The notes under the pieces are model-generated. The model saw only the letters and a program-made list of their open reading frames with translations. It had not been told where the DNA came from and did not search any database. This document shows positions 2,790 through 12,609 of a DNA stretch of 36,300 bases, piece after piece; within the stretch, counting starts at the first letter, position 1; each line of letters begins with the position of its first letter. A program made the position numbers and the translations under genes. The DNA is taken from IMG/VR virus record IMGVR_UViG_3300045988_181135, one strand, 5' to 3'. The DNA is from a virus.

Positions 2790-2817
2790 CCCATTTTCGT
2801 AACGTCACGAAAATGGG
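2790..2817. promoter_or_regulatory. 11-bp perfect inverted repeat just upstream of the DUF3644-like RBS
   Basis: CCCATTTTCGT (2790-2800), loop aacgtc, then ACGAAAATGGG (2807-2817). Confidence 0.5.
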
Positions 2818-2830
2818 TGAAGGGAGAGTA

Positions 2831-3874
2831 ATGGAAGGCAATTGCGAGCAGACGTACAACCGGCTGCTGGATAAATCCAGCGAGGCCTTCGTCCTCGCCA
2901 TCGAGCTTTACAACAGACCGAGCATCAAATACAGGGTCGAGGGCTTCTCGTTCTTTATCTGCAACGCGTGGGAGCTCATGCTCAAAGCGAAGCTGATAGC
3001 GGACAGGGGCATATCGGCCGTCTACTATAGGGACAACACCGACAGGACGATCACGCTAGAGCGCTGCATCTCCCAGGTCTTCACGAACGACAAGGACCCG
3101 TTGAGGCGCAACCTCGAGGACATCATCCGCCTGCGCAACACGAGCACGCATTTCATCGTCCAGGAATACGAGCAGATCTACGTTGGCCTGTTCCAGTCGT
3201 GCGTGACGAACTTCGACGAGAAGATGTACGAGTTCCACGGGAGAAGGATGTCGGATATCATCCCCCAGCATTTCCTGATGCTGTCGATGAATGCCAACCC
3301 TGCCACGCCGGAGGTAATACGCGCCAAGTACCCAGTCGAGATAGCCTCGAAGTTCCTTTTCGATGAGTCGGAGATCGAACAGGAGCAGCAGCTCCAGGAG
3401 AACCAAAGGTACTCGTGCGTCTTCCTGACCGAGATGGCAATTACGAAAAACCCCAAAAATGCGGACTTCACCGTCGCCATCGACAACTCGTCTGACAGGA
3501 CGATCCGCACCGCGAAGGTGTTCCAGGACCCCAAGAACACGCACCCGCTGTCGATGAAGAAAGTGCTCGAGCATGTCAACTCAAGGCTCGGCAGGCTCGG
3601 GATCGTACTCATGGCAAATGGCGAGCCGAAACTGTTCACCGCCAATGACTGGAAGCTGTTCCTGAACTTCTACGACATCAAGTCGAACAAGGAACTCGCC
3701 TACAAGCACGAGGTCGGAAGGAACGGCTCGTACACATACTCGATGAAAACCGTTGATTTCATTGTGGAAAGGGTTCGCGAGAACCCGTCGGACGTAATCG
3801 ACTCCCTGAAGCAGGCGCTCGCTAAAAAGCAAAACGAGACGACCCCAGGGGCAAAGGATTCTAAGCGGAAATAA
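2831..3874 (+). CDS. DUF3644-like protein (347 aa), low-GC moron
   Basis: The N-terminus KSSEAFVLAIELYNRPSIKYRVEGFSFFICNAWELMLKAKL...LRNTSTHF matches my recollection of the DUF3644 (PF12358) signature. ATG 2831 follows AAGGGAGAG; the track start 2813 is less likely. The gene is visibly AT-richer than its flanks. Confidence 0.6.
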   Translation: MEGNCEQTYNRLLDKSSEAFVLAIELYNRPSIKYRVEGFSFFICNAWELMLKAKLIADRGISAVYYRDNTDRTITLERCISQVFTNDKDPLRRNLEDIIRLRNTSTHFIVQEYEQIYVGLFQSCVTNFDEKMYEFHGRRMSDIIPQHFLMLSMNANPATPEVIRAKYPVEIASKFLFDESEIEQEQQLQENQRYSCVFLTEMAITKNPKNADFTVAIDNSSDRTIRTAKVFQDPKNTHPLSMKKVLEHVNSRLGRLGIVLMANGEPKLFTANDWKLFLNFYDIKSNKELAYKHEVGRNGSYTYSMKTVDFIVERVRENPSDVIDSLKQALAKKQNETTPGAKDSKRK

Positions 3875-4203: not shown

Positions 4204-5364
4204 ATGACACGCAAGCAGAGGCGCCGCGCGTGGGGCTCAATCACCGAGGCCAAGCGTGGCAAGAAATACATCCTCCGATGGCAGGAGAACACGCCGTGCG
4301 GACGCAAACGTAAAACCAAGACGGTATACGGTACCTACCGCGAGGCGTGCACCGAACTCGACCGCATCCACGTAGAGCGCGCCGATGACAAGCCGGTGCC
4401 GACCATCGCCCAGGCATACGGTACATGGCTCGAGCCGACCATGGCGGCACAGGTGGCCGCCGGCACGCTCGCGCCGAACACCCGTAACCTCGTCACAAGG
4501 TCGTGGGCGAACTACGTCGGCCCCACATGGGGCTCAATGCCGGTCGACCAGTTGCGCCCCGTGCACCTGCAGGAATGGCTCCTGACTCTCCCCGCAGCGA
4601 CGGCGGACACTGCCCTACTCACCCTGCGCAAGATCTACGGCACTGTGTCGGGCTTTGTCGTGCTGCCCATCGACCCGTTTGCCGCCACCGTGAAGTACAC
4701 CATGCCCACGCGCAAGACACGCGAGCGCTCCAAGCGCCTGTACACGCTTGCCGAATCCAAGGACATCCTGGAGCGCCTGCACGGGACCTCGCTCGAGGCG
4801 CCGTTCATCATGGCATGCTTTGGCTCATGCCGGTCGGGTGAGTCGCTGGGCATCCGCACCGATGAGGTCATGCCATTCGCGACAGGATCAACAACGCTCG
4901 CAACGGTCGACCTCGTGCGCCAGATGGAGCAAGCGGGCATCGAGCCCACGGCGGACGGCGTACTCAAGACGCGAAAGTCCATACGCACAGTCGTGGTGCT
5001 GCCGGATGCCGCCGGGCGCCTGCTCGAAATTGCAGACGAACGCCGCGCGGCAGGCTCCGAGTGGCTAGCAGATCGCGGGGACGGACTGCCCATGAACCGA
5101 GGGATGTGCAATCATAGATGGAAGAAGTGGTGCGAGGCCGAGGGCATCGAGCACATCCCATGGTCGAACCTCCGCAACTCGTGGCGAACGATCTGCGAGA
5201 TGGAGTTGCACATGCCCTGGGACCTCATGGAGATGCTCATGGGTCACTCCCTGCCGGGCGTGTCGGGCCGACATTATATTCGTCCCTCTCGTGAGCAGGT
5301 GGCTCGTTCCGTTTGCGACGCACTTGGGATAAATTGGGATATTTCCCAACAAACCAGCAGGTAA
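4204..5364 (+). CDS. int: Tyrosine integrase Int1 (386 aa)
   Basis: Catalytic signature pieces are present: GSCRSGESLG (box I Arg), LKTRKS (Lys), LRNSWRT, LMGHS and RHYIRP (Tyr). There is an arm-binding-like basic N-terminus. GGAGA RBS upstream. Confidence 0.9.
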   Translation: MTRKQRRRAWGSITEAKRGKKYILRWQENTPCGRKRKTKTVYGTYREACTELDRIHVERADDKPVPTIAQAYGTWLEPTMAAQVAAGTLAPNTRNLVTRSWANYVGPTWGSMPVDQLRPVHLQEWLLTLPAATADTALLTLRKIYGTVSGFVVLPIDPFAATVKYTMPTRKTRERSKRLYTLAESKDILERLHGTSLEAPFIMACFGSCRSGESLGIRTDEVMPFATGSTTLATVDLVRQMEQAGIEPTADGVLKTRKSIRTVVVLPDAAGRLLEIADERRAAGSEWLADRGDGLPMNRGMCNHRWKKWCEAEGIEHIPWSNLRNSWRTICEMELHMPWDLMEMLMGHSLPGVSGRHYIRPSREQVARSVCDALGINWDISQQTSR

Positions 5365-6966: not shown

Positions 6967-7539
6967 CTAGCCGTTGCTCACGATGCTCCAGGCGCCGTCA
7001 GACCCGACGACGCCGGGCTCGAGCGTGTTGCCGTCAATCAGCGACTCGTAGACGGTGCCGTACTTGGTAACCCGGTCGCCCTTGGCGTACGACTTTCCTC
7101 CGATCCACTCGGGAACGTCGGCGCCGCCGGCCGTGGACGCTACGACCTTCGCCCAGTGCTGGGGATCGGATACGGGGTCCGCAGCGGTCGCCGTGTGGCC
7201 GGAGATGGCCTTGTAGAGCGTGCCCTGCCAGAGCACGCGGTCTCCCTGCGCATAGACGTGACCGCATGCATAGAGCGGATAGAGCGCCGGAACATTCAAC
7301 GCATCATGGTCGGAGAGGGTGGCCGCCTGGATCTGGGCGAGCACGAGGGCAGCGTCCTGAGGCGTTCCGGCATCGGGAACGAGAGTCCACACCTGCCAGA
7401 TGGCGCCGTCATGCTGCTCATAGGCGAGCACCGTGTGGTAACCGGCGTCGGGGTTGGGTTCCGCCGCCTCGCGAATCGGCAGGCCGGAGCCGTCCGTAGT
7501 CAGGTAGACAGACCCAGATACAAATTGTCCGTAAAACAT
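6967..7539 (-). CDS. Protein with two CBM5/12-like carbohydrate-binding repeats (190 aa)
   Basis: The repeats are YAQGDRVLWQGTLYKAISGH...PQHWAKV and YAKGDRVTKYGTVYESLIDG...GAWSIV. The N-terminus is paralogous to 7548..7955. Confidence 0.6.
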   Translation of the reverse strand: MFYGQFVSGSVYLTTDGSGLPIREAAEPNPDAGYHTVLAYEQHDGAIWQVWTLVPDAGTPQDAALVLAQIQAATLSDHDALNVPALYPLYACGHVYAQGDRVLWQGTLYKAISGHTATAADPVSDPQHWAKVVASTAGGADVPEWIGGKSYAKGDRVTKYGTVYESLIDGNTLEPGVVGSDGAWSIVSNG

Positions 7540-7547
7540 TTTTCTCC

Positions 7548-7955
7548 TTAATGGTTGATTCTATCCCAAAGCTCCGGAGCCGTATCGGGCTCAGATCCGA
7601 TACGGGGTGCATGCGTCTGCAGGCACTTGTACAGGTCGCCTCCATATGCCACACGCGCGCCAGCGGCATACGAGGCCTCACCCACATACCACGGCCGGAT
7701 GAGCTGGGGTACCTTCAGCGCATCCACATCACCGAGAGTCTCGGCGGACATGGCAGCAAGCCGCACCGCGTCATCGCGCACCCCGTCTGGCACGACACTC
7801 CATACTTGGTAGATGGAACCGCCCCGCTGCTCATACGCCATGTCCGCCTTGAAACCCTCGGGGACCTCAGGCTCATCAGACGCGAGAATCGGGAGACCCC
7901 TCCCGTCTGTCGCCAGGCGCACTGCGGGCCCGACAAGGGTCCCGATCAATGCCAT
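7548..7955 (-). CDS. Paralog of 6967..7539 with one CBM5/12-like repeat (135 aa)
   Basis: The two share TDG-GLPI...EP...AYEQ..G.I.QVW..VPD...DAL.VP. The single repeat reads YAAGARVAYGGDLYKCLQTH...PELWDRI. Confidence 0.6.
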   Translation of the reverse strand: MALIGTLVGPAVRLATDGRGLPILASDEPEVPEGFKADMAYEQRGGSIYQVWSVVPDGVRDDAVRLAAMSAETLGDVDALKVPQLIRPWYVGEASYAAGARVAYGGDLYKCLQTHAPRIGSEPDTAPELWDRINH

Positions 7956-8051
7956 TTAGACTCCTTTCTCTCGACCTCTCGTGGCAGAAATCCCACGCGC
8001 GTATCCTCTCCTTGAGAGCCCACGCGTCTGGGATTTACGGGATTGGAGACA

Positions 8052-8924
8052 ATGATGAAAGTTGCAGAGGCCGCCTCGAGGTACATGGACGATAAGCGCG
8101 GCAGGCTGCGCGCCTGCACCCTGGCCGGATACGAGAGCGCGCTAGCGCTGCACGTCCTACCTCGCTGGGGCGAGCTGGAACTCGAGGCGATAACGCCCGA
8201 GGGCGTACAGGGCTGGATTGATTCGTTTGATCTGCCGGGGGCCGCCGAAAAGGCATACAAGACCCTGCGGCAGGTTATCCGCTGGGCCATCCGCCGTCTC
8301 GGTGTGCGGATGTACGACCCAACCGCCGCCGGTGTCGAGCTACCGCACAAGCCGGCGCACTGCCCACGCACGATGGAGGCGAGCCAGGTCCGTGCCTACC
8401 TCCGCGCGCTGTGGGGACACGAGTGCGAGGCGGTCGCAATCTGCTCGGTAACCCTCGGGCTGCGGCGCGGCGAGGCGTGCGGCCTCAAGTGGTCGGACAT
8501 CGACCTGCGCACCGGTGAGGTCCGCATCCGCCGTTCGAGGCAAGTCGTGCGCGGCAATGAGGTCGTCGAGGCGCCGAAGACCGAGCGCTCCGCGCGGTCC
8601 TGCTGGCTCCCCCGCTTCGCCGTCAACCGCCTGCGCGCGCTGCGAAAAGGCCGCTCGGGCTGGCTGTGCGAACTGTCGCCCGACGCCATTGCGCGGCACA
8701 TCAAATCCGCATGTCGCCAAGCCGGAGCCGCCTGGACCTCGATGACGGAATGCCGTCACACGTGGGCGACGCTCGCCGTGGAGGCAGGCGTGGGTATTGA
8801 GACCGTGGCCATGATGCTGGGACACACCGATATCGGCACGGCATACGAGCACTACATCGTGCCGAGGCCGCGCATCTGCAAGGACGCACAAAGGGTGGTG
8901 GAGCGGTTGATACTCGGCGGGTAG
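8052..8924 (+). CDS. Short tyrosine recombinase (Xer/Rci-like, about 290 aa), candidate shufflon invertase
   Basis: Signature pieces: LRRGEACGLKWSDID (Arg), PKTERSARS (Lys), CRHTWATL, MLGHTD and YEHY (Tyr). It is the only + strand gene within the minus-strand structural arm. Its TAG (8922-8924) is 2 nt from the first 12-mer site. The track start 8043 is a TTG; ATG 8052/8055 follow GGAG. Confidence 0.85.
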   Translation: MMKVAEAASRYMDDKRGRLRACTLAGYESALALHVLPRWGELELEAITPEGVQGWIDSFDLPGAAEKAYKTLRQVIRWAIRRLGVRMYDPTAAGVELPHKPAHCPRTMEASQVRAYLRALWGHECEAVAICSVTLGLRRGEACGLKWSDIDLRTGEVRIRRSRQVVRGNEVVEAPKTERSARSCWLPRFAVNRLRALRKGRSGWLCELSPDAIARHIKSACRQAGAAWTSMTECRHTWATLAVEAGVGIETVAMMLGHTDIGTAYEHYIVPRPRICKDAQRVVERLILGG

Positions 8925-8926
8925 GA

Positions 8927-8938
8927 ATTCTGTATCCC
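8927..8938 (+). repeat. Recombination-site candidate 1 (ATTCTGTATCCC)
   Basis: Perfect 12-mer. It opens cassette 1 in frame (AAT TCT GTA TCC). Confidence 0.85.
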
Positions 8939-9240
8939 CGGTTTCCGTTGATTGCGGCATTACCAATCTGCCGACTACTGTCCGCATGGTTGGAAATATT
9001 GTTGTGGTCACGGTGTCCGGCACGCTAAAGAGTGCTGTAGGGGCCTGGGGAATGCTGACATTAAGTAACGCAGTGCCAATGACAAGAGATAGGCATAACT
9101 CGCTCCTCATTTCGCAAGACACAACCGACCCCCGCATCTTGCTGTCGGTAACAGGGACCCATCTATTCATAGAGTCCAAAGGGGCCTCGATACCCCAGGG
9201 CTCCTGGATATTCGGCCAGCTTGTATATCTCTGCGTGTAG
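8929..9240 (+). other. Silent tail-fibre C-terminal cassette 1 (SVS + 100 aa, TAG)
   Basis: The frame is open from the site: SVSPVSVDCGITNLPTTVRMVGNIVVV...SWIFGQLVYLCV*. There is no RBS or start at the site. It contains track ORF 8986..9240. Confidence 0.7.
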
Positions 9241-9241
9241 C

Positions 9242-9253
9242 ATTCTGTATCCC
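9242..9253 (+). repeat. Recombination-site candidate 2 (ATTCTGTATCCC)
   Basis: Perfect 12-mer, 1 nt after the TAG of cassette 1 (9238-9240). Confidence 0.85.
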
Positions 9254-9483
9254 ATGTCGTGCGCAGCGTGACTTTTTCTGCTAATAAGCAGTACGGCCCG
9301 TTTTATTACGACGAGTTCGATACGGAAATCAAGGCCAGAAATTTCGTGCTCGCCTTTCCACTGTCCGGCGTGCGATTTATTCGCCAGGCGGCGGTCTCGT
9401 CGGCGGGGAAACAGCGTTGGATGATAGTTCAGACTTATAAGGGCGATGCCGAGACTATCCCGGTGATGTTTTGCTGTTTCTAG
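9244..9483 (+). other. Silent tail-fibre C-terminal cassette 2 (SVS + 76 aa, TAG)
   Basis: Translation is SVSHVVRSVTFSANKQYGPFYYDEF...ETIPVMFCCF*. It contains track ORF 9259..9483. Confidence 0.7.
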
Positions 9484-9484
9484 C

Positions 9485-9496
9485 ATTCTGTATCCC
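9485..9496 (+). repeat. Recombination-site candidate 3 (ATTCTGTATCCC, extended CGAG shared with site 4)
   Basis: Perfect 12-mer, 1 nt after the TAG of cassette 2 (9481-9483). Confidence 0.85.
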
Positions 9497-10026
9497 CGAG
9501 GTTCGTGGCACAGACAAGCACTGGAAAGCTGTATCAGCCTTTCCGGTGCGACCTCCCCTCGGGCAGGATGGCGGCGCTTGTCTGTATCTACAACAACGGT
9601 CGCCCGCTGGCATCGACCGTATTCCCCATATCCATCTTCGCGCGGTACTGCACCGGCTCGGGGATCTGCGCCGACTGCTATTACAGCCCGGGCGGCTTCG
9701 GTGTCCATGCCTACTATACGGGCAGCATGCTCTACCTTATGGCTGACGCCGACGTATACAGAGCGGACTTCGTCGTGTTCTTGGAGGGCGCGGACGGGCT
9801 ATATGGCCAGGGGGATGCAGCAGGCGCAGTTCTCAAATCCATATCCGTATATTTCCGAGCGAGTCGAGAAATAGAGTTTTACGGCGCCGGACGGCTCGAC
9901 CACCGCGCCTACCGACTTGCCAAAGCGCTCCGACGTGAACGCCATGGTCGGGATATTCGACTTCGGCCTCAGGCGCTCGGGGAGCACGAGTGCAGCGCCC
10001 GAGGAGAGCTCGCACGCGTCAGATGA
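9487..10026 (+). other. Silent tail-fibre C-terminal cassette 3 (SVS + up to 176 aa; true end uncertain)
   Basis: Translation is SVSPRFVAQTSTGKLYQPFRCDLPSGRMAALVCIYNNG.... There is no stop until TGA 10024-10026, so its last ~75 codons run antisense to cassette 4. Confidence 0.55.
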
Positions 10027-10155
10027 CGACATCGACCCCGAGACATAGCTGAACCTGACGATGAGGATGCATGTTGCGACGATCCAGCAGTCCGCCTTTA
10101 CGGTGCAGCGAAGAAGACCGACGTTGCCACCGCCGAGATAGCTCGGGGATACAGA
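9799..10155 (-). other. Silent tail-fibre C-terminal cassette 4 (SVS + 115 aa, TAG), same orientation as the expressed gene
   Basis: Translation is SVSPSYLGGGNVGLLRCTVKADCWIV...EIYGYGFENCACCIPLAI*. It contains track ORF 9799..10032 and is convergent with cassette 3. Confidence 0.65.
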
Positions 10156-10157
10156 AT
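10146..10157 (-). repeat. Recombination-site candidate 4 (inverted copy)
   Basis: GGGATACAGAAT on the + strand. On the minus strand it starts 1 nt after the tail-fibre TAG (10161-10159). Confidence 0.85.
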
Positions 10158-10158
10158 C

Positions 10159-10989
10159 CTAATTGGCAATCCAGATGCAGTGTCCAATGTTGTGCCCTTG
10201 GCTAACAGCTGCCGCGCTAATAAAGACAACTTTGCCAGATTTCTGAACCTCGACTTCTGCAGTGCTGTTGTTGACGATGCCGCTTGAAGATGTACGCACA
10301 GCCGGCGCAAGGAATGATTGAGTCGGACGGAATTCAACGGGCAACGTCCCTGCATTCCATAACTGTGATGATTCCTGAATGAAATTCCAAGACATCTCTA
10401 CCAGGAAGCCTATTTTACGGTAAGCCACATAGGGACCCGAGAAGTCTTTCCCATATAAGAACTGATAGCCAACCTCGCGGGATACAGAATCCCCGAGGTC
10501 TGCCAGGGGAGTCAGTTTGGGGATGAGAAGCTTAGGCTGACCCGTCGTCAGTCCGTCGAATGTCACCGAGCAGATCGGGACCGTCACGTCAGCGTCACCG
10601 TCCAGGATAGAGCCTTTCGGCACCGACGGCGCGGCGGCGCCCGAGCCGGGGGTTCCCTGGAGAACCTTCCACTCGACCGTCTCGACAAGGGTCGGGCTGG
10701 ACCCGCTCACATCGCGGGTGTAATGGACACAAATGTAGTCCATGCGCTTCTTGCCTTGCGAGCCGCTCGCCACCTTGACGTCCTCGGGCGAGGTGACGCC
10801 GATATGGCGACCCTGCACGATCATGTCGCCGGTCGCGATACGGACGGTGTTCGCGTCGACGAGAGATGGGGCCAGTTTGCCGCCCGTCTGCAGCACATAG
10901 CTGCCAGTGCCGACTTCGCCCGCAATGCGGCGCCCGTCGTCGGCCGAGCTGACGTGTGGCACGCCCGCTTTACCGGTCACTATCTCCAT
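10159..10989 (-). CDS. Tail fibre / receptor-binding protein: constant N-terminus (aa 1-166), currently expressed variable C-terminus (aa 171-276)
   Basis: It is the last gene of the tail module. The N-terminus MEIVTGKAGVPHVSSADDGRR...QGRH...VHYTRD resembles a recurrent prophage tail-fibre N-domain. Recombination site 5 is embedded at codons 167-170. Confidence 0.75.
   Translation of the reverse strand: MEIVTGKAGVPHVSSADDGRRIAGEVGTGSYVLQTGGKLAPSLVDANTVRIATGDMIVQGRHIGVTSPEDVKVASGSQGKKRMDYICVHYTRDVSGSSPTLVETVEWKVLQGTPGSGAAAPSVPKGSILDGDADVTVPICSVTFDGLTTGQPKLLIPKLTPLADLGDSVSREVGYQFLYGKDFSGPYVAYRKIGFLVEMSWNFIQESSQLWNAGTLPVEFRPTQSFLAPAVRTSSSGIVNNSTAEVEVQKSGKVVFISAAAVSQGHNIGHCIWIAN
10479..10490 (-). 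repeat. Recombination-site candidate 5 (inverted copy inside the tail-fibre gene)
   Basis: GGGATACAGAAT on the + strand. It covers tail-fibre codons D167-S170 (GAT TCT GTA TCC). Confidence 0.85.
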
Positions 10990-11202
10990 TTAAGCCGTCC
11001 TTTCCCATATAAAGCCGTTCTGGCTGTCCCGCATGACCCACGTTCCCCCATAGGTGGCACCTGGGTTTTTGCCCTTGCTTTCCATATAGAGGGAGCCCAC
11101 AGGGTGTGCAGCGAGGAACGTCTGGGCGGTCGAGGCTGCAGGACCCTGTGGCCCCGTCTCCCCGGCAGGCCCCTTTATGTTGCCCAACTTGATCCAGGCC
11201 AT
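10990..11202 (-). CDS. Short collagen-like / tail-collar-like fibre protein (70 aa)
   Basis: MAWIKLGNIKGPAGETGPQGP (Gly-X-Y) is followed by HPVGSLYMES...GGTWV, a tail-collar-like motif. Confidence 0.65.
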   Translation of the reverse strand: MAWIKLGNIKGPAGETGPQGPAASTAQTFLAAHPVGSLYMESKGKNPGATYGGTWVMRDSQNGFIWERTA

Positions 11203-11216
11203 TTCGCCGTCACCCG

Positions 11217-11450
11217 CTAGGCCTTGTAGGTGTACAGGTTGCCCGTGCTCGCGTCGATGTAGACCGAACCGACCACGGCAGTACCTGTCGGTGCGCCGGT
11301 CCCAGCGGTCACTGAGGTGCCGTCGGCGCCCTTGGGCCCGATCGGGCCGGTCTCCCCTCGCGGCCCCTGGGCCCCTTGCGCTCCCCTGGCGCCGGTATCG
11401 CCCTTTTCGCCTTTGGGACCCTTCAGCGATCCGATGTTAGTCCACGCCAT
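11217..11450 (-). CDS. Collagen-like repeat fibre protein (77 aa)
   Basis: Sequence begins MAWTNIGSLKGPKGEKGDTGARGAQGAQGPRGETGPIGPKGADG. GGGGGAG RBS upstream. Confidence 0.75.
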   Translation of the reverse strand: MAWTNIGSLKGPKGEKGDTGARGAQGAQGPRGETGPIGPKGADGTSVTAGTGAPTGTAVVGSVYIDASTGNLYTYKA

Positions 11451-11465
11451 ATCGCTCCCCCTTCA

Positions 11466-12143
11466 CTAGGCACTCGTACCGTACTGGTAGACCTTAAAGC
11501 CGTCTGCCGTATCAATGTAGACGGCTCCCTCCTGCGACGCTGCCGTAGGAGCCCCTTGGCCGAACGTAATGCCTGGGCCAGCCGGCCCCTGTGCGCCCTT
11601 GGGGCCGGTGTCGCCCCTGTCACCCTTTTCGCCCGTGGCCCCCTTGTCGCCCTTGGGCCCCTTCATTTCGCCGAGGTCCGTCCACTGCGCATCACCGGTC
11701 GCGGCGGTTTTCACCCACATGTGGCCGTTGTCGCTCGTGACGTAGGTGTCGCCGATGGCGGCATCGGACGGCAGCGCGGACGCGCTGCTCACCGCGCCCT
11801 TGACCGTTATGGACGTGCCGTCGGCACCTTTGGGGCCAGTGTCGCCCGTTTCGCCTTTGGGCCCCTTGAGGCTCACGCCGTTGATGGCGGAACCGACTCG
11901 GGCGGTAGACCTGCCCGGATCCACCGCCGAAATGGGATAGACACTTCCCTTGGCGTCGAGCACGAGGTCGCCGACCTGCACGCCGTCAGACGGGGAAAGC
12001 GCCGAGAATGCGACTTCGCCTTCCGACGGGATATTGACGCTCGCCACGCGGACGCTGCCGCCCTTGGGGCCGGCGTTGCCGGTCGCGCCCTTGTCGCCTT
12101 TGGGGCCCTTGAGCGTTCCAACTTGGTTCCATGCGTTAGCCAT
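11466..12143 (-). CDS. Collagen-like repeat tail fibre protein (225 aa)
   Basis: ATG 12143 (MANAWNQVGTLKGPKGDKGATG...) follows GGAGA. There are three Gly-X-Y blocks. The track start 12218 lies inside the upstream gene. Confidence 0.75.
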   Translation of the reverse strand: MANAWNQVGTLKGPKGDKGATGNAGPKGGSVRVASVNIPSEGEVAFSALSPSDGVQVGDLVLDAKGSVYPISAVDPGRSTARVGSAINGVSLKGPKGETGDTGPKGADGTSITVKGAVSSASALPSDAAIGDTYVTSDNGHMWVKTAATGDAQWTDLGEMKGPKGDKGATGEKGDRGDTGPKGAQGPAGPGITFGQGAPTAASQEGAVYIDTADGFKVYQYGTSA

Positions 12144-12609
12144 TTGTATCTCCAATCTCGCCGTAGCGATAATAGGTGCCCGTCTCACTGTCGAGATAGA
12201 GGTCCCCGACGCGACCACCTATGGCGGGGGTGCCGCCCCCGACATACCACTTCGTGCCGGGCTCGCCTACGGCCCTCAGCTGCTCTCGCACCCAATCTTC
12301 GACATCAGCCCAGGTCTTGACCTCGTCATCGGTGTAGATGTAGCCGTCCGGCTTGGCCCTCGGGCGCACCTTGAGCACGGCGCGCGCGTGCGTGTCGCGC
12401 CCATCGCTCGCCCAAACGGCCATGTCGACGCCCGCAGTAAGCAGAAGCGAGGGCACCACGGCCTCTCCGCCCACGACCGGGACGACCAATGCGCGTTCCG
12501 ATCCGGCGACGGCGAAATGTGCCTCCGTCACCCCCTGCAACGCGATGTGAACGCGCCGACCCGTATCCCATTGGTAAAGGGGCGGGCCGATGAGTTCTAT
12601 CTGCTTCAT
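12136..12609 (-). CDS. Tail/baseplate-associated hypothetical protein (157 aa)
   Basis: Assigned by position between the Gp37-like protein and the collagen-like fibres. The C-terminal GDLYLDSETGTYYRY motif is shared with the fibres. Confidence 0.6.
   Translation of the reverse strand: MKQIELIGPPLYQWDTGRRVHIALQGVTEAHFAVAGSERALVVPVVGGEAVVPSLLLTAGVDMAVWASDGRDTHARAVLKVRPRAKPDGYIYTDDEVKTWADVEDWVREQLRAVGEPGTKWYVGGGTPAIGGRVGDLYLDSETGTYYRYGEIGDTNG

Follow-up and report, generated by a model that had tools for sequence, protein, structure and literature searches.

A putative Rin-type shufflon exchanging receptor-binding protein tips among five cassettes in a Collinsella prophage

The viral DNA analysed here is the IMG/VR record IMGVR_UViG_3300045988_181135, a stretch of 36,300 nucleotides hereafter called the window, in the numbering of which all positions are given. 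Between positions 8,052 and 10,989 it carries a tyrosine recombinase gene (rin), a set of silent coding cassettes and the gene for a tail receptor-binding protein (RBP), with five copies of a 12-bp repeat placed at the cassette boundaries. With a probability of roughly 0.9, this locus is a Rin-type shufflon of a Collinsella prophage, which exchanges the tip of the RBP among five cassettes. A first-pass annotation had proposed a tyrosine-recombinase shufflon swapping the RBP tip, and the proposal is now supported by 19 natural isomers of the locus, by five fusion genes, by a tip resembling the RBP head of the lactococcal phage TP901-1 and by an XerD-like recombinase.

The repeat, ATTCTGTATCCC, is present in the window in five exact copies, three of them forward (+) and two inverted (-). 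Site 1 (8927..8938, +) lies 2 nucleotides past the stop codon of rin (8922-8924), and sites 2 (9242..9253, +) and 3 (9485..9496, +) are exact copies further along the same strand. Site 4 (10146..10157, -), which is pseudo-palindromic, begins 1 nucleotide past the stop codon of the RBP gene, while site 5 (10479..10490, -) lies within that gene, where GAT TCT GTA TCC encodes D167-S170. A scan of the window tolerating up to two mismatches adds a single unrelated match, at position 996, and none of 100 dinucleotide-preserving shuffles matched the observed count. In about 60 related loci, 196 copies of the 12-mer were found between the recombinase and the RBP gene, against none in 455 kb of the flanking DNA of such loci. 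A chance repeat was therefore rejected, as was a common host repeat, which the first-pass annotation had named as an outcome that would speak against a shufflon. Its other statements on the number, uniqueness, orientation and placing of the sites, including the 2 nucleotides between the recombinase gene and site 1, agree with the positions, the shuffles and the scan of the flanks.

Each site is the start of a cassette and is in frame, the frame beginning one base upstream of the site and reading xSVS; including the four shared codons, the frames are 104, 80, 180, 119 and 110 codons long. The silent cassette frames possess no start codon. Cassette A (8926..9240, +; 104 codons, beginning NSVS) ends in a TAG at 9238-9240, 1 nucleotide before site 2, and cassette B (9241..9483, +; 80 codons) in a TAG at 9481-9483, 1 nucleotide before site 3, both as first described. 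Cassettes C (9484..9783, +; 99 codons) and D (9799..10158, -; 119 codons) are convergent and, situated between sites 3 and 4, move together as one invertible segment. The expressed tip, cassette E (10159..10491, -), supplies codons 167-276 of the RBP and the stop codon, and is preceded in the gene by the constant N-terminal 166 codons, termed Rc (10492..10989, -). The positions 9781-9783 read TTG in the window and TAG in the three near-identical relatives checked (L035, L037 and L041), and every one of the 15 related C cassettes stops at 98-100 codons. A TAG-to-TTG stop loss thus accounts for the 180 codons of cassette C, its frame staying open through an extra 81 codons, antisense to cassette D, up to 10026. 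The lengths originally given for A, B and D stood, while the 176 codons given for C were an artefact of the lost stop. The higher AT content noticed for the cassette region is seen as a GC fraction of 0.49-0.55 over 8850-10500 versus 0.62-0.72 in the flanks.

In the proposed mechanism, Rin (8055-8924) would recombine pairs of oppositely oriented sites, called rix, at the core A-TTCTGTA-TCCC. The in-gene site sits after RBP codon 166, and the remaining sites would serve as heads of promoterless, start-less tip cassettes. If the in-gene site recombined with a forward site, the inversion would fuse another cassette in frame to the 166 constant residues. The resulting RBP would bear a different head domain, 80-120 residues long and presumably directed at a new host-surface receptor. 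Inversions using the site after the RBP stop codon would re-order the silent cassettes. Cassette D would reach Rc by this route, in two steps, because it has the same orientation as the expressed tip. The expectation that inversion between any forward and any inverted site swaps the tip therefore needs amending for D. Fusions of all five cassettes to Rc exist as genes.

Recombinase-based scans of viral and genome collections retrieved about 70 related loci, mostly from Collinsella aerofaciens and uncultured Collinsella, with more distant ones from Olsenella and Enteroscipio. A look-up of the exact Rin protein led to 420 blocks of public assemblies and to ten further loci encoding an identical Rin protein. 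Loci with rin DNA 96-100% identical to that of the window (21 other complete loci, making 22 with the window) were defined as the isomer set, and the window segments A, B, C/D, E and Rc were mapped onto them by BLAST. The five cassettes, 95-100% identical, are present among the 22 loci in 19 distinct orders and orientations. Five left flanks (the end of rin, the ends of A, B and E, and Rc) and five right flanks (the starts of A to E) have been re-assorted, with every breakpoint or join inside the 12-mer. The window has the arrangement rin>A>B>CD<E<Rc; locus L039 is organised likewise except for an inverted C/D, L041 reads rin>E->A>B>CD<Rc, L112 reads rin>D-C-<E<A-<B-<Rc and L036 reads rin>B>E<A-<Rc. 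Inversion of C/D as one block is seen in L039, L112, L113 and L118. Rc is joined to cassette A in three loci (L036, L109, L114), to B in seven (L034, L040, L110, L112, L113, L116, L118) and to D in four (L037, L041, L111, L117).

All the five fusions to Rc are called genes in public assemblies, and the switch point is always DSVS. They are represented by Rc-A (P0205, 270 aa), Rc-B (P0154 and P0155, 246 aa), Rc-C (P0187, 265 aa), Rc-D (P0196, 285 aa) and Rc-E (P0121, 276 aa), the tails of which are identical to the corresponding window cassettes at 98%, 100%, 100% (over 99 aa), 97% and 96% of residues, respectively. Contig ends at the locus also bear the signature of structural heterogeneity within samples: of 41 contigs, 14 stop less than 700 bp past the downstream end of rin, ten of these within about 120 bp, and none stops that close on the upstream side. 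The metagenomic and metagenome-assembled contigs that break off at the first rix, no more than about 120 bp beyond the rin stop, include L001, L032, L038, L042, L044, L049 and L055-L058, among others. The contigs of L038 and L042 have been binned, probably wrongly, in Bacteroidota metagenome-assembled genomes (Sodaliphilus and Bacteroidaceae).

The arrangements bear directly on the possibility that the locus is a fossil, that is, a once-active shufflon or a set of duplicated RBP tails which no longer recombines and has its tip fixed as E. The stop-loss mutation in cassette C of the window would fit such a state, as would the existence of relatives which look like locked or decaying shufflons, judging by their genes: L066 has an internal deletion in rin (L066:2894-3624) along with a mutated Rc site, ATTCTGTATACC, and L026, L027 and L070 retain the first half of rin only. 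In the window, however, rin is intact and the five 12-mers are perfect, and the occurrence of 19 arrangements among loci with 96-100% identical rin DNA, ten of which encode the identical Rin, indicates very recent activity. A fossil array is thus very unlikely.

The anatomy of the site provides further evidence on how the exchange takes place. Across about 70 related loci (L001-L071) the site exists in two alleles, ATTCTGTATCCC with 107 copies and ATTCCGTATCCC with 104; they differ at position 5 (T or C) and never occur together in one locus. T-type and C-type arrays alike are served by Rin proteins up to 99.7% identical, and the two alleles are interspersed within Collinsella; among the loci retrieved, the distant relatives have the C type only and the T type is confined to the Collinsella clade. 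As the alleles are unmixed in each locus and near-identical Rin proteins serve both, position 5 would have to match between the recombining partners rather than be read by the protein, a behaviour expected of the overlap region in a tyrosine-recombinase core site. The left arm at Rc, CCTCGGGGA, forms a perfect inverted repeat with the right arm at cassette C, TCCCCGAGG, on the two sides of TTCTGTA, which suggests a core site of 9-7-9 architecture with strand exchange probably occurring within the 7-bp TTCTGTA overlap. The left arms of the silent sites are degenerate because the TAG of the previous cassette occupies them.

These properties make it highly improbable that the arrangements are the work of homologous recombination, general (RecA-type) or between phages, acting on a conserved DSVS coding motif, and not of the adjacent recombinase. 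The repeat does encode a conserved peptide, and the cassette sets vary between phages, inter-phage exchange clearly taking place among the 43 cassette families described below. However, 12 bp is too short for efficient RecA recombination, and the 12-mer is identical in nucleotides though the cassettes share only 12-23% identity in protein. The sites are strictly oriented and are present only beside a dedicated recombinase that ends 2 nucleotides from site 1, no locus mixes T with C alleles, and in the homologous system of Bifidobacterium sequencing reads show inversion at rix (PMC6109161).

Site 4 has the pseudo-palindromic form aGGAT-TCTGT-ATCCc, its left arm aGGAT mirroring the right arm ATCCc. 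Variants without C/D carry a pseudo-site matching 11 of the 12 positions, ATTCTGTATCCT, where the end of A or B meets the tail of E head-to-head (L034:7206, L036:7119, L040:7206, L050:6989, L066:4185, L069:7449 and L116; compare 10146-10165 in the window). The pseudo-site likely originated when site 3 recombined with site 4 read in reverse, cutting out C/D. It opens a dead-end frame of 32 codons, and its fusion to Rc is represented by P0192, a protein of 198 aa with 11 member sequences. A more far-reaching but improbable proposal is that the T and C overlaps might constitute incompatibility groups that keep co-resident or co-infecting Rin phages from scrambling one another's arrays, and that site 4 might give a programmed OFF state with the tip-less RBP of 198 aa (P0192) and might permit excision of C/D as well. 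If this were true, the Collinsella Rin shufflon would unite an ON/OFF switch with a choice among many tip alleles, drawing on a common pool of 43 or more cassette families.

The rin gene (8055..8924, +) encodes a predicted invertase of 289 or 290 aa, the start codon being the ATG at 8052 or that at 8055, where the database homologues begin. Pfam detects only Phage_integrase (PF00589, 4e-15) and Phage_int_SAM_3, that is, a catalytic and a SAM-like core-binding domain, and finds no arm-binding domain. The nearest solved relatives are XerA, an XerC-like protein and XerD. The residues R138, K176, R235, H258 and Y268 are invariant in the alignment of Rin relatives down to 41% identity. The catalytic signature R/K/H-R/H/Y assigned to a 290-aa protein in the first-pass annotation is accordingly present except for the first His of the HxxR box, which is replaced by Thr232. 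NCBIfam gave only weak, sub-threshold matches of Rin to Xer, integron-integrase and Fim-type invertase models, far below the XerC, XerD and XerA cut-offs. A second, longer integrase-like open reading frame (ORF; 4204-5364, 386 aa), which is weakly integrase-like, is also present, so that Rin is not the sole candidate integrase; NCBIfam returned no match for this second recombinase or for the RBP.

That the recombinase is simply the prophage integrase or an Xer-like resolvase, standing beside the repeats by coincidence, would accord with the database names of Rin (integrase or tyrosine-type recombinase) and with its Xer relatives, but can be dismissed as next to impossible given the second integrase-like gene, the lack of an arm-binding domain, scores far below the curated Xer cut-offs and the position of rin beside site 1 in all of the about 70 loci as well as in Bifidobacterium phage PMBT6; an integrase function for rin was rejected on these grounds. 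Two other routes to tail-fibre variation were also considered. A serine invertase was rejected as the recombinase belongs to Phage_integrase (PF00589). A diversity-generating retroelement was rejected because cassette exchange at the 12-mer fully explains the variation, no systematic search for reverse transcriptases having been made.

The division of the RBP into a constant and a variable part is equally evident from its homologues. The PHROG families 9994, 13141 and 25635 match residues 1 to about 169 only, the part upstream of the site, and database proteins 91-99% identical to the RBP over the first 62-68% diverge thereafter; these matches and the point of divergence delimit Rc. Pfam on the full RBP gave only a meaningless weak JmjC match. 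The AlphaFold2 model of the RBP is confident for residues 172-276 only (predicted local distance difference test, pLDDT, 81-96), and for the N-terminal 170 residues pLDDT is below 50 in both models, which are thus uninformative on the shoulder and the neck. Foldseek matched the modelled tip E to the RBP heads of the lactococcal phages TP901-1 and p2 with a probability of 1.00 (TM-score 0.64 to 4ios), and the modelled tip E accordingly displays the RBP-head fold.

The cassettes as a group are diverse. The loci contain 203 complete cassettes, mostly of 80-120 aa, 79 of which have their stop codon exactly 1 nucleotide before the next site. They fall into 43 families (single linkage, E below 1e-5), and the five cassettes of the window belong to five separate families with pairwise protein identities of 12-23%. 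By hhalign, the A and E families are homologous (probability 96.6%, E = 5e-10), and D shares an LPxxxRP region with A (73%) and has partial similarity only to the known RBP heads. No signal was obtained with hhalign between the C and E families. The model of Rc-C has a tip of moderate confidence, which gave no structural match with E below 0.08. Cassette B has no diverged relatives among the loci from which a profile could be built, and Pfam found no match in the four silent cassettes. As to a common RBP fold of the tips, similarity to the TP901-1 head was found for E (by Foldseek) and A (by alignment to E), partially for D and not for C or B.

Several points weigh against the shufflon interpretation. 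The isomers are drawn from different genomes and metagenomes and represent a cross-genome comparison rather than reads from one population. Cassette-lacking variants (L035, L037, L116 and L118) reveal that deletions occur too, and hence that the control by site orientation is not absolute. Cassette C has no stop codon here, and its expression would add an extension of 81 residues. No resemblance to known RBP heads could be detected for tips B and C, and that of D is only partial. A simple promoter and terminator scan of 7400-11300 yielded no promoter-like site, for rin or otherwise, and no meaningful terminators. Finally, the link between Rin and the reaction in Collinsella is drawn by sequence comparison. 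Rin is presumed to be the enzyme that performs the rearrangement, the tips would be expected to alter the host range, and switching probably takes place inside a single lysogen population.

The RBP gene has collagen-like tail-fibre genes on one side and, on the other, the genes for two CBM_5_12 proteins, a holin and an endolysin. The collagen-like (Gly-X-Y) tail-fibre ORFs, three in number and short, lie directly upstream of Rc (10990-12218, -). Prophages that are near-identical elsewhere share only 74-99% identity in this segment, which makes it a second variable region. The two small CBM_5_12 carbohydrate-binding-module proteins (6967-7955, -), located between rin and the holin gene, are kept in all close relatives and, lying downstream of the shufflon, could have additional functions in host binding or in assisting lysis. 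On the left side of the endolysin gene there are a helix-turn-helix protein (1254-1643), a DUF3644 and EC042_2821 restriction-endonuclease-like protein (2813-3874) and the integrase-like ORF at 4204-5364. In most of the loci with identical Rin (L109-L114, L116 and L118) the lysis genes directly abut host thiC and thiD-like genes, so that the end of the prophage or its insertion context differs in the window.

Collinsella is a common and much-studied genus of the human gut, and very little is known of its phages. The presence of the exact Rin protein in so many assembly blocks implies that the prophage is widespread. If the tip switch is a working one, host-range prediction from a single assembly may mislead, as the expressed tip would be one of at least five. 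Assemblies tend to break at the shufflon locus. The isomer series, along with the two site alleles, offers a clean and testable definition of the crossover site for the Rin recombinase family.

Among the known inversion systems, the serine invertases Min (p15B), Gin (Mu) and Cin (P1) are comparable in that a phage-encoded inversion switches the C-terminus of a tail fibre and hence the host range, and Min also acts on multiple segments. They differ in employing a serine recombinase with an enhancer and Fis, in contrast to the tyrosine recombinase here, and the distinction from them made at the outset is upheld by the assignment of Rin to PF00589. The R64/IncI shufflon (Rci, sfx, pilV), which the locus had been said to copy, is similar in its tyrosine recombinase, multiple inversions and exchange of the C-terminal end of one adhesin-like protein; the sfx sites are likewise asymmetric, one arm being degenerate and the other conserved along with the overlap. 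However, the target in R64 is PilV, a type IV pilus adhesin on a conjugative plasmid, and here a phage tail RBP with a TP901-1-like head. Rin matched no Rci-type family in the libraries searched, no Rci sequence having been compared. On this comparison, Rci/sfx is a good mechanistic analogy and not a matter of family membership.

The closest counterparts are the Rin shufflons of Bifidobacterium and Eggerthella prophages described in the literature, and the question whether an equivalent phage system was already known, which the first-pass annotation had left undecided, is answered by them (PMC6109161, PMC8778435). Mavrich et al. (2018) described the Rin shufflon in the dnaJ2-integrated prophages Bb423phi1, Bl157phi1 and Bl30698phi1 of B. 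breve and B. longum (PMC6109161). That system consists of a tyrosine invertase without an arm-binding domain and an 11-bp rix, TTCCCTAACCC, situated ahead of every variable (Rv) cassette, within the RBP gene and immediately beyond it; the constant N-terminus is 168 aa long, the Rv cassettes are of 95-100 aa and mutually weakly similar, the tips are TP901-1-like except for one without such similarity, and sequencing reads revealed inversions at rix (PMC6109161).

The Collinsella locus shares with it the invertase at one end, the constant Rc at the other (166 aa here) and the Rv cassettes in between, with a short asymmetric repeat before each cassette, one inside the RBP gene and one directly after the stop codon in the same orientation. 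The cassettes here are of 80-119 aa and mutually 12-23% identical, and TP901-1-like similarity is detected by Foldseek for E and by hhalign to E for A, partially for D and not at all for B and C. The differences lie in the host (Collinsella, of the Coriobacteriia), in the rix (ATTCTGTATCCC versus TTCCCTAACCC), in the cassette sequences and in the evidence for inversion, obtained from reads there and from comparison between genomes here. Homology between the systems was established through Bifidobacterium phage PMBT6. In PMBT6, the rin and Rc counterparts are neighbouring genes, 43% and 35% identical respectively, and TTCCGTAACCC, 1 nucleotide off the published rix, is present in three direct copies, with one partial inverted copy beside the recombinase. 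The in-gene site of PMBT6 encodes DSVT, aligned with DSVS at site 5 of the window. The homology of rin, of Rc and of the site position identifies the Collinsella locus as a homologous member of the Rin family in a new host genus.

A Rin shufflon with the rix ttccgtat was reported in 2022 from Eggerthella lenta clade 1 prophages, the Rv proteins of which are stated to carry H-type lectin domains (PMC8778435). E. lenta belongs to the same class, Coriobacteriia, and its locus has the same layout of rin, Rv cassettes and Rc. Its rix falls within ATTCCGTATCCC, the allele of half the related loci, and the window is one base off (ttctgtat); a relative from the Eggerthellaceae (Enteroscipio, L067) has a Rin 59% identical. 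The locus differs from that of E. lenta in the absence of Pfam matches in the window cassettes, as against H-type lectin Rv, and in the use of the T allele, found only in the Collinsella clade among the loci retrieved.

Megablast of 7900-11100 against the INPHARED phages gave no match, no paper on a Collinsella shufflon or prophage invertase was found in the literature searched, and a survey of programmed inversions (Nucleic Acids Research, 2023) makes no mention of the Rin system. The concept has been known from the 2018 and 2022 publications, and the Collinsella locus is another Rin shufflon; since the mechanism has been in the literature since 2018, the gain lies in host range and detail rather than in the concept. 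What is new is modest and comprises the Collinsella host and the commonness of the prophage, the natural isomer series, the two mutually exclusive overlap alleles, and the pseudo-palindromic site along with the deletion and dead-end products associated with it.

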